From Orbicella franksi (lineage: Eukaryota), in the NCBI GenBank assembly GCA_964199315.1, contig OZ116699.1, positions 33,046,001 to 33,110,000 of the forward strand: a stretch of 64,000 nt of DNA. Reading direction: 5' to 3'. Below, in pieces: positions 25,137 to 33,565 of the stretch. Under the pieces are notes generated by a model that was given only the letters and a program-made list of their open reading frames with translations, was not told the DNA's origin and ran no database searches. How positions within the stretch are numbered: position 1 is the stretch's first letter; every line of letters starts with the position of its first letter. Made by a program: the position numbers and the translations under genes.

Positions 25137-25181
25137 AGTAGTGTAAGAGGCTTACAGGGGGCCGAAATTGGCACAACATAG
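25137..25181 (+). repeat. Left terminal inverted repeat (AGTAGT Polinton-type terminus)
   Basis: AGTAGTGTAAGAGGCTTACAGGGGGCCGAAATTGGCACAACATAG matches the reverse complement of 33521-33565 at 40/45 nt. Confidence 0.75.
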
Positions 25182-28018
25182 CCAATCCGATTGCGAGATT
25201 AGTAGCAATTATGGTAAAAGAGATTTCGTCCATGATGGGTCAATAGGAATTGGGTAGGACTAGCGCGCGCTGTGTTGTAATGGAAATTAACCAATGAGTG
25301 TGCTTAGATTGGAAACCACTGGCCAGCATTTTTTGTACTTACAGGGCCTGTGTAACGATGCCCGGGATAATCTGGAGTTTAACAATAGTTTCAATAAACA
25401 ACATTTTAATAAACTCTTGGGAAAGTAAATATCAAAAATCTCATTTGAACTGCGGGATAAAGACTTCAACACATAAGAGTTAGAGATACATGTAATCATC
25501 AGAGTAGGCTTCAACTGATAACAGTTAGCTTAAGCAAAAGCTAATTGAAAACTTGACCTGCGCACCGAGATATTGATAAAGCGGATTAACATAGCAGTGC
25601 GTCATGAAGTAGAAACAATTTGCGGTATCTGACTAGCTTTCCTGCCGACCACTGACAATACGGTCTAGACATGAAAAGCCCACCCATGTAGCAAAAACAA
25701 CGAATTTCACCTTGTGTTTTAAGAACTTCTTTTAACGGATTTCTGTGTTTTATTGTGTAAAAAAGAGCTCAGTCGCAACAACTTTATATCCTCGAAAGTA
25801 GCGAGCCTTAAAGGCCGCTAACTCCGAAACGACCTTCCTTACTTTCAGAATTTTGAGGTTTCAAAATGATTGAATAAAAGATACTTTTTACTCTGGTGCT
25901 TTTTTTATTACTTACTTTTTGCATCAGAAATCAGTTTAATATTTGTGAAGCCGTTCCTTTTTCCTCTGAGAAACGTCTCCAAAGCGTCGAGCGAATTCAG
26001 AAAATTAGCCCGCTCACCGCGGAATCGTACAATGCAGCCATTGTTATTTCGTGGCAAAGTTACTGAGCCTGTGTAGCTGAATATGAATTTACTAATCATT
26101 TGGTTGTAGGGTTGGAAGTCATGTGGGAGAGGTTGTCAACAACGGTTAAAATTAAAACTTGCATTCCATGTAAGAGATCGTGTCAGCACAAGGTACTGTG
26201 TCAAAATTATCAGTAGAATACATTCTTTGCGTAATTAGTGTTTTAGCATGAGGTGTGAATCTTTTGGACAGTCCTTGCCTCATTCGTATAAGCGATCCAA
26301 TTTCCGATCGAGCTTCAAATATATCAGTTCTGAATACTGAAAGGTCATAGTATGATAAACAATTCTGTACCAAAGAATTTGAGAACGATAAATGGAATAC
26401 TCTTTTCTGCCACCGGGATTTAAAAACTAAGAATGCACTCGCTCATTAGATAGAAACTTTAGATAGAAACTTTATGAAAGTGTTAATGCCTTGTAGCCTG
26501 AAAAAAACCCGTACTAATTTGGGGACACAAAATAAACAATACCACCCAGAAATTTTGTAGTCCCTACGCAAAGTCGTATGCTGATAACGTAAAGTGAAAA
26601 CAATGACGACCGCTTCCCTTCTTACGCAGTACATTCCGCACATTCGGTGATCCTTTCTGCTTAATCATTATACGAAGTAGTGTATGGGGTAAGTAGCCAT
26701 TTTGATTACGTCAGTCCTTCAACATGGCCCTCAGTACTTAATGACGTCATCTGCACAGACACAATTCGACTTTGGTAAACACGCCCACTAACTGCCGCTA
26801 ACAACGGTATCACATAAGCGTCTAACGAAACTAATTAATGGGCTGGATGCAAGTAAAACTCTCAACAATTTATTAACTCGATGTTGATAAAGGTAGGTAA
26901 ACCTCCATGTTACAATTACAAGTTATTGAAGATGACGTTTCGAGCGTTAGCTGTTCGTCAGAGCTCGGAAGATGGGTTCAAACTAAAAAAATCAGCTTCA
27001 CTAACTAACGACGATAATTAACCTTTGTCAGTTTTAAGACGATGAATAGCTTAGACTAGCATACTAAACTATGGCAACAAATAGAATTATAAGCTTATTA
27101 GAGGTGTTTCACCTCCGGGGAGGAGTCCGTGGGTGGTACTGACTTATTGCATATTTTACAGATTACATCATTTTGTCATACCACGCATTCCGTTTGTGTT
27201 GCAATCCTATAGAAAACTGACAATAGGCTACGTAAGTAACGTTTACGCACGCTATGAAAGATTGGCTGATGTGAACCGGTCCGGAAAGAAGCCGTGTACT
27301 GCCACGCGTATTATAATTCTGCGCATTAACCGAGACATTGATATCCAACTCTACCCAGCAAAATCAATCTCATTGATTACATAGAAGGCAATATTTGGCT
27401 CTTAGTATCGCGTAGAAAGAAATGCTCGTTCCTTGGTAATTTGTACTCCATAACATCCAACAAGCTCATATATTACTGTGCAAATATGTAAATATCCAAC
27501 TGAGATACTGTTAAATACTTGCATGCCTCAAAATTGACAGATTTAGTTATTACTGGCAGTTGGGTACTCATTTATTATAGCTTGACATTGAAATTAACAC
27601 TATCTCACTTTCTCGACATTAAAAGGGAATATGAATCAGTACGATATTGCCTCAAGTGTTTGTAACTTGTAATCTTACGTGCATCCGGCCGCCCTCAACG
27701 CTTAAAAATATTTAAATATTACACCACACGATATGTCCAGAATAAAAAGCTGCTAAAAGTCAGTTCTTGTTAACAATTTACCAGAGGAGTAATAAACCAA
27801 CGAGATAGCAAGGATTGGCAAAGATTGAGATCGGGATAGCGAAAAAAAAGGCGAGCTGAAAATAATAGAAGAATGACTACGACGTTTGCTACGCTCAGAT
27901 AGTTTCATCAGTTTTATACCTGAGTAACGTTATATGTCAATATACTCGGCGCGTCTCTCGAGGTTCCACACTGATCAGTCACACATTTCAAGTGGACAGG
28001 TGAGATCGTCATCGAGAA

Positions 28019-29428
28019 ATGTTTTTGGTATTGTTCTTCAAGTTATTACTCCATTTCACATGTGGAGCAGCTGAAATTCAAGATGGCCAAGCTCCACTGA
28101 TGATTGTGTCCCTGGATGGAATGGATTGGCGAGTGTTGAAGAGTCAGTTTGCTGTTACAGCTAATTTGGACTTCGTCGCACAAACGGGAGTTAAAGCCGA
28201 ATACATAAAGAACATTGTACCTTCCAGCACGTGGCCAAATCATCATACATTTCTGACTGGTCTCTACTCGGAGAGTCACGGGATTGTGGCGAACAGATTC
28301 TGGGATCCAGTTTACGAAGAAAAATTTATATTCGGTTACGACTGTTCAAACTTTGATCCCAAGTTTTACAACGAAGCGGAACCAATATGGCTGACATTAC
28401 AAAAGCAAGGCGGACGCAGTGGCTCATACTTTTGGCCTGCAACTACCAGCTACTCCGTGAAACCAACCTTCTATGAAAAAGAACTCTGTCTTGTCAACTG
28501 TAGTGCAATAAACCCCAAAGAGCTTCCAAGGTATAGAAATAGAACTTTGGAAGGTTTTCCACCTTACGTCCACTGCGCGTTTAACTTGAGACAGAATTTT
28601 TCAGTTCGAGTCAATAAGGCGGTGGAGTGGCTTCGTTCTGACAAACCGCCGCATTTTATTTCTCTCTACTTTGGAGCGATAGACATTACGGGCCACTCCC
28701 ATGGGCCGTTCTCGAAAGAATACAAGAGTATGGTGGAAAATGTTGATGTGAATGCTGTGGGGTTCTTACTGAAGCGATTAAATGAAACCGATTTTCTGCG
28801 CAAGGTCAACTTGATAATAGTAAGTGATCATGGAATGGATAATACGTCAGCAAGTCGCCAGATATACTTGGAAGATTTCATTGACCCTTCGACTTATACG
28901 TTGACTGAGAAAGGTCCTTTAGTGCACATGTGGCCTCGTCCTGGAATGATGGAGGAAATCTACCAAAACCTTACAAGAAATCAAATACCACACGTCCGCC
29001 GAGTGTTCAGGAAAGAAGACATTCCAGATGAGTACCACTGGAAAAACAACCGACGAATTCCGCCGATCTTCATTGATCCTGAAGTTGGCTGGGTCATAAC
29101 AAGCTCCAGAAGTGATCCACCGCCAGGACGAGGAGAACACGGCTGGCCTCCAGATCAATCAAAGAGCTACTCGGTTTTTTATGCTCGTGGACCAGCTTTT
29201 CGAGAAGGTGCAGTTGTGAGGCCATTCAACATAGTGGATCTTTACCCTTTGATGTGTGAGCTTCTTGGAATAGATCCTCGTCCGAACAACGGCTCTATTG
29301 AAAATATCAAAGCTGTCCTTAAAGAAGATATTCCACCACCTCGGGGTGCTGGAAAGAAGCAAAACAGCGCATGCTTGAAATTCGTCTTAACAATCCTCCT
29401 TATTGGGTTTGGACTTTTCAGAAATTGA
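28019..29428 (+). CDS. Ectonucleotide pyrophosphatase/phosphodiesterase (ENPP4/5/6/7-type, catalytic domain only), single coding exon, signal peptide plus hydrophobic C-tail
   Basis: 469-aa ORF. Signal MFLVLFFKLLLHFTCGAA; metal/catalytic motifs SLDG (D), STWPNH (nucleophile T), TGLYSESHGIVAN, DITGH (D,H), SDHG (D,H), GEHGW (H); FYARGPAF and VDLYPLMCELLGI; hydrophobic tail FVLTILLIGFGLF. No SMB or nuclease-like domains. Confidence 0.93.
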   Translation: MFLVLFFKLLLHFTCGAAEIQDGQAPLMIVSLDGMDWRVLKSQFAVTANLDFVAQTGVKAEYIKNIVPSSTWPNHHTFLTGLYSESHGIVANRFWDPVYEEKFIFGYDCSNFDPKFYNEAEPIWLTLQKQGGRSGSYFWPATTSYSVKPTFYEKELCLVNCSAINPKELPRYRNRTLEGFPPYVHCAFNLRQNFSVRVNKAVEWLRSDKPPHFISLYFGAIDITGHSHGPFSKEYKSMVENVDVNAVGFLLKRLNETDFLRKVNLIIVSDHGMDNTSASRQIYLEDFIDPSTYTLTEKGPLVHMWPRPGMMEEIYQNLTRNQIPHVRRVFRKEDIPDEYHWKNNRRIPPIFIDPEVGWVITSSRSDPPPGRGEHGWPPDQSKSYSVFYARGPAFREGAVVRPFNIVDLYPLMCELLGIDPRPNNGSIENIKAVLKEDIPPPRGAGKKQNSACLKFVLTILLIGFGLFRN

Positions 29429-32753: not shown

Positions 32754-33520
32754 ATAGAGTGGATGGCTGATCGTGTACATGCTAAAGACGATTAAATTAA
32801 GACTGGGATATACTACACTGTCAAGGATTGTTTGCAGCTTCTGTCATGTTTTGATTCAGCAGAGAGAATCTTCAGCCAGGGTGTGGAGTAAATTTCCTAA
32901 TATACATTTTCAAACATGTAATGTTTGTTTCAATTGTCTAGTACATTATTATGCCACTCACTCATCACTAACCGAGAATCATTGGACATACTACGACGCT
33001 CATTACCGCAATGGCCTCAAATCACAGTTTTAGATGAAGATCTAAGTCAGGCGCAAGCAGCTCAGGAACATGACTACTTAGATTTTGAACAATTCTAACC
33101 AGGGAGTAACTTAAGCGTCTTCACTTTGTAAACTAAAAGAGTCTTGTTGATGAGTCAGTGAATTGTTTCATGTTTGTCACGATTTCCCACCTTGTCAAAA
33201 GATTTTTTTTCTGTGATTATCAAAAAAACATTTAAAAAATAGACTTGAATCTTCAATGGTGCATCTCCTCATGACGTCATCGAAGACCCAAAACCCGCTC
33301 CTCATCATGTCCTCCCCTCCCCCTTCCTCGTGATGTCAACTAGTACGCCATGACAGCCACAACGCAGCTCCTCATGACATGACGTCATCGAATCCCAGGC
33401 GCTGATTGGTCCATCCCGTTGACCGAGAGGGACCTGGACAAATTCGGGTACTTCCACCATCTTGAATATTGCAGCCCATACAAACCCTCTTATTTTTACC
33501 TCATTAGGCCCTACTTTCAC

Positions 33521-33565
33521 CTATGATATGCCAATTTCGACCCCCTATAAGCCTCCTACACTACT
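33521..33565 (-). repeat. Right terminal inverted repeat (ends ACTACT)
   Basis: Reverse complement AGTAGTGTAGGAGGCTTATAGGGGGTCGAAATTGGCATATCATAG; ~0.8 kb downstream of the pPolB, preceded by a subterminal region with repeated TGACGTCA and a CCAAT box (33260-33420). Confidence 0.8.

Follow-up and report, generated by a model that had tools for sequence, protein, structure and literature searches.

How does a complete, working animal gene come to lie between the ends of a decayed Polinton, and did the Polinton bring it there? The question is raised by a locus of the coral Orbicella franksi. The window analyzed here is a stretch of 64,000 nucleotides from assembly GCA_964199315.1 (contig OZ116699.1, positions 33,046,001 to 33,110,000 of the forward strand), and all positions below refer to it unless another sequence is named. 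An initial annotation, made from the letters alone, described its segment 25137-33565 as a Polinton/Maverick-derived insertion carrying an intact ENPP gene inside the exon array of a receptor. We find that this segment is a single-copy, non-autonomous and internally deleted Polinton/Maverick relic and that its interior holds a host ENPP4/5-like locus copied at the DNA level, non-coding flanks included, over at least 4.7 kb (25941-30672). The embedded gene is transcribed, is under purifying selection and occupies the same position in another coral species; the whole is a genuine and well-anchored relic in which a host gene has been domesticated. For its origin we favor, with a probability of roughly one half, a Pack-type capture, in which the ENPP locus was enclosed between Polinton ends, inserted as a non-autonomous unit and retained by the host.

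The ends and the remains of the Polinton

The segment is bounded by inverted termini of 45 nt starting with AGTAGT, of which 40 positions (89%) are complementary, exactly as had been claimed. A 25-nt pattern of the terminus, searched with at most 2 mismatches, occurs only at these two places in the 497-Mb genome (controls gave 0), which makes the pair unique and settles a question asked at the outset: both ends belong to one rare Polinton family. The candidate target-site duplication (TSD) outside them is as imperfect as first described, ACAAAC and ATAAAA agreeing at 4 of 6 positions; agreement at 4 or more has a chance of 0.054, and a decayed TSD is favored only mildly, by a likelihood ratio of about 2.4-4.4.

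Next to the right arm lies half of a polymerase gene. The same genome encodes a complete PF03175 polymerase of 1366 aa, and the pPolB remnant aligns with its residues 673-1363 at 56% identity, with 7 stops and 2 frame changes; a 135-aa piece of the remnant is up to 70% identical to coral pPolBs, and the polymerase had rightly been called decayed. When open reading frames (ORFs) of at least 120 aa from the 30-kb regions of three complete Polintons, elements in which an rve ORF is present, were used as queries, they matched only the pPolB region. No integrase, packaging ATPase or capsid gene was therefore detected inside the 8.4 kb, in agreement with the initial annotation, and the element fails as an autonomous Polinton. 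In the right arm, 32837-33065 resembles DNA that two other relics have at a distance of 1.4-1.6 kb from their ATPase genes, and 33378-33506 resembles the long terminal inverted repeat (TIR) of a 2.5-kb relative; about 190 bp of such TIR-type DNA is absent from the left end.

The genome contains dozens of pPolB-bearing loci (40 candidates scored), and seven complete Polintons drawn from the top of its pPolB list (C1, C4, C5, C6, C8, C10 and C11) served as controls. They measure 23.4-25.8 kb, against 8.4 kb here, their TIRs are 159-199 bp long and 98-100% identical, and their TSDs match at 6/6 positions in 7/7 cases; for two further copies, the stretch compared contained no left end that matched. 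Judged by these controls, the element of the window is old and cut down. Its decay is still ongoing, since two deletions in the pPolB remnant are polymorphic: one of 461 bp (31317-31777), whose joint occurs in runs X15 and X3, and one of 8 bp at 30782, present in X15 and X19.

Several other Polinton sequences of the genome deserve mention. The 2.5-kb relative (C2:6264532-6267030) is itself non-autonomous. Its inverted repeats, 663 bp long, agree at 78%, its ends are of a similar AGTAGTGT type, its candidate TSD (AATTTA) matches at 6/6 positions, and it has sequence in common with the right end described here. Part of the window's right arm is also found near an ATPase gene in the old relics C9:31122079-31124318 and C2:9804965-9807282, and the pPolB DNA closest to the remnant (71-76%) lies in another old relic, C2:11919611-11935665. 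In the complete element C11, another sequence resembling a terminus lies 5.7 kb inward from the right end. The features of the locus are collected in Table 1, including the host-type repeats that had already been noticed in the segment.

Table 1. Features of the ENPP-bearing relic and of the surrounding receptor gene (window positions).
Feature	Position	Strand	Remark
LRRNT exon, last before the element	23726..23837	+	AG/GT ends; phase-compatible with 33906
Single-copy intron flank anchoring orthology with locus L145	24190..24350		1 genome match
Candidate left TSD, ACAAAC	25131..25136		4/6 versus 33566-33571
Left TIR, AGTAGT..., 45 bp, likely cut short	25137..25181	+	complete elements 159-199 bp
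Two host repeats (at 25179-25281 and at 25543-25829), otherwise DNA of unknown origin	25179..25940		no match to 7 complete Polintons
Host-derived genomic segment	25941..30672	+	71-85% nt in blocks versus C14 locus; L145 colinear
Intact ENPP4/5-like gene, 469 aa	28019..29428	+	transcript about 27900-30300
Host/pPolB junction	30671..30672		~270-bp host repeat cut after ~100 bp, then pPolB
pPolB 3' half, decayed	30672..32721	+	versus 1366-aa PF03175 polymerase
Polinton right arm	32722..33520	+	similarity to other relics and 2.5-kb relative
Right TIR, ...ACTACT	33521..33565	-	pairs with left TIR
Candidate right TSD, ATAAAA	33566..33571		4/6 versus 25131-25136
First LRR exon after the element	33906..33977	+	starts 340 bp right of right terminus
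Terminal Cys-rich/7TM exon of receptor	41806..43238	+	frameshifts near 42460 and 42875

The embedded ENPP and its parent-type locus

The embedded gene is intact, as had been proposed, and PF01663 (E 1.8e-72) is the sole Pfam family in its 469 residues. The catalytic motifs SLDG, TWPNH, IVAN, DITGH, SDHG and GEHG are all present and align with ENPP5, Thr nucleophile and metal ligands included; the roles of the individual catalytic residues are those that we assume for the family. The best relatives of solved structure are ENPP5 and ENPP4 (PDB 5vem and 4lqy, E 1.6e-71 and 9.3e-68). Hydropathy, the only measure used for the termini, peaks at residues 1-17 and 450-469, and the predicted layout is that of ENPP4/5, with a putative signal peptide and C-terminal anchor and with neither an SMB nor a nuclease-like domain. 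A role in immune evasion by cleavage of cyclic dinucleotides was considered and found no support here: the metal-binding His is common to ENPP5, and a literature search on the topic listed nothing on Polintons.

The named relatives of the protein are stony-coral sequences (Oculina 78%, Porites 69%, Montipora 64%), with an Orbicella protein in a close cluster, and the protein tree that had been suggested as a check nests the embedded ENPP within a scleractinian clade with support 100/100. Viral contigs gave no match for the ENPP, the pPolB piece or the terminus; on the coral relatives, the coral clade and this missing match, a viral origin of the gene is rejected.

Where in the coral genome does it come from? 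The closest ENPP paralogs form an inverted pair on C14, 92% and 91% identical in amino acids, among ordinary neighbors (LPMO, GPCR). The window is colinear from 26302 to 30672 with C14:10870853-10865970 on the minus strand, at 71-85% nucleotide identity in blocks that include the non-coding flanks. A weak match extends this colinearity to 26233, the block 26302-26434 being itself a repeat, and L145, a locus of another coral species, is colinear with the window from 25941. Retroposition is rejected because the flanks, 2 kb upstream and 1.25 kb downstream, travelled with the gene; the intronless state is uninformative on origin, since the genome's other best ENPP matches are also single open frames. 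At the right, host homology ends at 30672 and pPolB homology begins at 30671-30672, inside a 270-bp repeat that is cut about 100 bp in. At C14 the same repeat is uninterrupted, and so it is in the 39 other copies that were scored from 1043 candidates, which makes the window the derived, cut form. The direction from a C14-type state, uncut, to the window, cut, is thereby shown. The donor was a C14-type locus and may have been a sister copy that is now lost.

As for other donors, the plus copy on C14 was rejected for its flanks, which lie further from the window (0.31-0.34 versus 0.21-0.22), and no closer surviving donor was found among 40 scored of 201 candidates. The C14 pair itself (C14:10861562-10868603) has coding DNA 96% identical and flanks only 60-67% identical, a difference that suggests gene conversion.

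The coding sequence (CDS) tree groups the window copy with C14 (79/86 and 89/86) and L145 with the window (99/98); relative to other coral genera, the branching of the window copy is close to a polytomy. In the 3' flank, the window grouped with L144 (26:4:5), but this grouping was lost on the shorter alignment inspected (4:7:5) and was dropped. The dN/dS ratio is 0.20-0.29 between the window and the C14 copies and 0.23 (p 2e-13) between the window and L145, both at the same site; the embedded ENPP is under purifying selection. It keeps STWPNH, VANRFW and NFDPK, as most relatives do, at places where both C14 copies are altered. Along the window stem we count 10 synonymous to 1 non-synonymous changes, and in the C14 copies 2 to 7 near the active site (Fisher p 0.0045, post hoc). 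The Orbicella protein P0208 has altered active-site-adjacent residues, as both C14 copies have.

Expression was followed in the raw poly(A) reads of run X24, about 25% of which was read. Depth is ~80x over ~27900-30300 and near 0 on pPolB and upstream; AATAAA/ATTAAA signals stand at 30238 and 30278. Among 25 read alleles listed, drawn from 40 of 143 rows, 8-9 equal C14, only 3-5 of the 90 150-nt windows of C14 would pass the 97% filter, and 7 of the 8 in-range alleles are common to an X15 contig that runs from the 3' untranslated region into pPolB. The reads thus belong to the embedded copy or to an ortholog of close form, and the embedded ENPP is transcribed. Two other runs, X22 (41 reads, in repeats only) and X19 (sparse contigs), were informative in neither direction. 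With a dN/dS of ~0.2 and a transcript on one side and 7 stops in pPolB on the other, the claim that the gene stayed intact while the polymerase decayed is borne out.

Site, age and proposed route of the insertion

Among the metagenome loci, 12 of 17 were compared, L156-L160 (31-60% identity) being left out. L146 and L153 represent the same site as the window, at 98-99%. L145 (CDS 92%) has an intact ENPP ORF and the same single-copy left flank, its positions 17-272 matching window 24143-24436 at 71%; the embedded ENPP is present at the same site in this second coral species. L147 and L149 belong to a coral that is less closely related; both match C14 for 78 bp past the junction point, and no pPolB was found in the 0.3 and 1.4 kb, respectively, that follow it: these relatives carry ENPP in a C14-type context. 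At L145:272-346, ~1.4 kb (window ~24525-25925) is missing, the left TIR included.

The state of L145 bears on a reading in which the Polinton moved nothing: the ENPP would have arrived by an earlier segmental duplication, and two Polintons of the same family would have inserted on either side of it, to be trimmed by deletions. An ENPP at the site without a left TIR, the imperfect TSD, the short left TIR and an ENPP lineage that appears older than the decay of the Polinton (see below) all suit it; there is even a precedent in Pack-CACTA elements, for which closely spaced insertions with complementary deletions are described in the accessible text of PMC13317346. Since the join in L145 falls in a host repeat whose remainder the window has, L145 is however a deleted state that says nothing on the TIR. 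Two insertions and two deletions would be required, from a family with only these two termini in the genome, and the 4/6 agreement of the flanks would be fortuitous. We regard this history as unlikely.

An empty site would speak for insertion as a unit, and the initial annotation had proposed looking for one. Four DNA runs (of 24 listed) were picked by the left flank, one of which may be the assembly's own source, and contigs of X1 span both ends of the element, while those of X3 and X6 span the host/pPolB junction and the right end; those of X10 are patchy, outside the element too. No empty-site joint was seen in them among the joints listed (15 of 30), in contigs that show presence, not absence, nor among 8 joints of 4 RNA runs; no paralogous empty site was seen either, the left flank having no other genome copy beyond a short repeat.

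Timing gives a further handle, all clock figures being divergence per lineage. The TIRs yield 0.06 (0.02-0.145), the stop codons of pPolB 0.07-0.08 (0.03-0.16) and its near-invariant residues 0.043-0.047 (7/75 and 17/149; interval 0.02-0.07; P<=0.03 for 0.09). The split of the window from L145 lies at 0.06-0.07, and that from the minus copy on C14 at about 0.09 for third positions and 0.10-0.145 for flanks, near the splits from other coral genera. The TIR, stop-codon and window-L145 clocks overlap; the death of the Polinton thus falls near the window-L145 split. By 0.03-0.05, the ENPP lineage seems to predate the decay of the polymerase. This mismatch points either to clock noise or to a donor other than today's minus copy on C14, be it a sister copy since lost, a different coral lineage or a cargo phase; CpG hypermutation was rejected as its cause, CpG transitions making up only 3/32 and 0/13 changes.

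The clocks weigh on the order of events. A full Polinton could have inserted first, as the landing pad and not the vehicle, and a later break could have removed ~16-20 kb, from the left TIR to mid-pPolB, and been patched from the ENPP locus. We consider this replacement in place possible, if somewhat doubtful. It requires no later transposition of an element that is single-copy, it explains why host DNA truncates the left TIR after 45 bp although the right end keeps ~190 bp of TIR-type sequence, and the candidate TSD fits it equally. Polymerase decay and TIR divergence should then be at least as old as the duplication of ENPP, and the point estimates run the other way, at 0.045-0.08 and 0.06 against 0.09-0.12; these estimates have broad intervals, however, and no conflict would be left if the donor had been lost. 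The junction offers such a repair at best a short, imperfect A-rich microhomology.

Alternatively, an active Polinton may already have borne ENPP beside its left TIR, possibly from another coral lineage, then integrated and lost its middle. The place of the gene next to the left TIR and the size of 4.7-5.5 kb recall the 2-5 kb cargo region of nematode Mavericks; the clock mismatch, the 10:1 stem, the near-polytomy with other coral genera and the residues that the C14 copies lost would be accounted for, and PMC11131425, in its main text, calls polintovirus transfer between coral genera possible. On the other hand, neither the genome nor the viral contigs yielded a further element with an ENPP, and nor did the compared metagenome loci, where the only pPolB-linked ENPP is this same site; the best CDS tree groups the copy with C14, and an old duplication with donor loss, hybridization or clock noise explain the same data. 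It is thus improbable that the gene was viral cargo. It seems equally improbable that an active Polinton moved ENPP between coral lineages and that the host kept, in this copy, ancestral active-site surroundings while its own copies diverged; if true, a functional gene would have been transferred among reef corals by a Maverick and then domesticated.

Under the Pack-type capture that we favor, the ENPP locus would have been taken up elsewhere, by break repair or by complementary deletion of two neighboring copies, and the unit would have been inserted into the receptor-gene intron by integrase supplied in trans. The host would then have kept the enzyme gene while the viral part decayed. Expression would proceed from the promoter and poly(A) signal brought by the captured segment, and the product, as predicted from its sequence, would be a membrane-anchored extracellular nucleotide pyrophosphatase, probably a redundant, conservative paralog. 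By analogy, the short left end and the long right arm fit the two-copy complementary-deletion route of Pack-CACTA. An inner transposon as carrier of ENPP was rejected, no inner inverted repeat exceeding chance size.

Several observations weigh against this reading. The left TIR measures 45 bp where the seven complete Polintons have 159-199 bp. No second TIR-bounded ENPP, for which a check had been proposed, exists among 23 ENPP matches or in the 7/7 complete elements, and because the element is single-copy as well, movement after capture rests on the 4/6 TSD. The part of the original claim that stands is an internally deleted Polinton with a host-derived ENPP; its mobilization after capture is likely but unproven. 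There is no Polinton trace at C14, where Polinton ORF matches are missing from 60 kb around the ENPP pair. No empty site has been seen, and the L145 contig ends before the expected start of pPolB, so that the Polinton ends are not visible there. To these is added the greater apparent age of the ENPP lineage: because the polymerase decay is younger than the C14 split, a capture straight from today's C14-minus lineage fits poorly.

The surrounding receptor (pseudo)gene extends over ~20050-44040, with the architecture SRCR-LRR-Cys-rich-7TM, and belongs to a large family (78 matches). The exon context first reported is partly confirmed: the LRRNT exon lies 1.3 kb to the left of the element and an LRR exon follows on the right, but LRR-like remnants at 24740-25110 were not recovered, 24700-25136 giving 0 matches to a crude LRR consensus versus 3.8 in shuffles. 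A tblastx comparison with four paralog regions gave few LRR matches only. As the two exons are phase-compatible, the site is one ~1.6-kb intron, and the picture of an intact receptor whose exon array was interrupted gives way to that of a single intron in a frameshifted gene. The 7TM exon has two frameshifts relative to 3/3 paralogs tested, the first of which is not an assembly error, since an X15 contig across it has no indels but those at 42090 and 42293. No splicing that joins receptor exons over the element was seen, X15 having two joints, both in the 3' part, and X24 a depth <1 in most bins there; frameshifted in its 7TM exon, the receptor is yet spliced in its 3' part (X15).

Elsewhere in the window, the minus strand holds a 602-aa lysine-rich ORF with no Pfam match (3833-5641) and exons at 6689-7081, 11537-11917 and 12555-12938, two of which we take to be WSC-like and one of which is weakly Tudor-like.

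Comparison with known gene-carrying elements

The papers compared in this section are cited for their accessible text. Capture of cargo by Mavericks is already known from nematodes, where elements with wasp/krma cargo have, next to the left TIR, a region of 2-5 kb that contains a gene of host type (10.1101/2022.07.12.499685). The coral case shares with them a cargo gene that outlives its carrier. The nematode families are tied to many near-complete Mavericks and to movement between species, whereas the coral case is one relic of one old event, without integrase or capsid genes and with an identifiable parent-type host locus whose non-coding flanks came along. ENPP occurs in 0/7 complete elements, and a recurrent Maverick cargo is thus not what we see.

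Closer in host group and element class are the polintoviruses of stony corals, which also have patchy accessory genes (Stephens et al. 2024, PMC11131425). Since regions without MCP, mCP and ATPase genes were filtered from that survey, the relic described here would drop out of it; "phosphodiesterase" and "host gene" have 0 occurrences in its main text, one short supplement has no ENPP term, and its accessible text describes no case like this one. In the literature searched, with subscription journals mostly outside, we found no Polinton with an ENPP and no non-autonomous coral Maverick/Polinton; the accessible parts of PMC8502044 and 10.64898/2026.10.13.758929 contain nothing specific to the coral case. 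As an enzyme, the embedded ENPP resembles vertebrate ENPP5 and ENPP4 in its single catalytic domain and its aligned metal ligands and Thr nucleophile, and differs from them by its coral-specific clade and by a Cys-containing insert at about residues 144-180.

The nearest likeness is to Pack-MULE and Pack-CACTA elements, TIR-bounded and non-autonomous, which hold a DNA-level copy of chromosomal sequence (PMC13317346). As in these, the coral element has host DNA with non-coding flanks between its ends, a parent locus elsewhere and no transposase or integrase of its own. Pack elements are cut-and-paste TIR transposons, whereas the coral carrier is a Polinton, and their reviews deal mostly with gene fragments, whereas the coral cargo is a whole transcribed gene under purifying selection (PMC13317346, PMC6431247). 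Full-length gene capture by Pack-MULEs and Helitrons is described as exceptionally rare (PMC6431247).

A mobile element that duplicates a complete working animal gene, here likely brought from another locus, is uncommon. Because the relocated copy changed little and the C14 copies changed near the active site, the locus is also a compact case in which to ask whether relocation left the parent copies free to change substrate. With dozens of pPolB-bearing loci in the genome, a genome-wide count of captures is directly testable. If the favored reading is true, Polintons would act in corals as Pack-type gene duplicators that move a complete gene together with promoter and poly(A) signal, in a case where the parent-type locus and the outcome can both be read.

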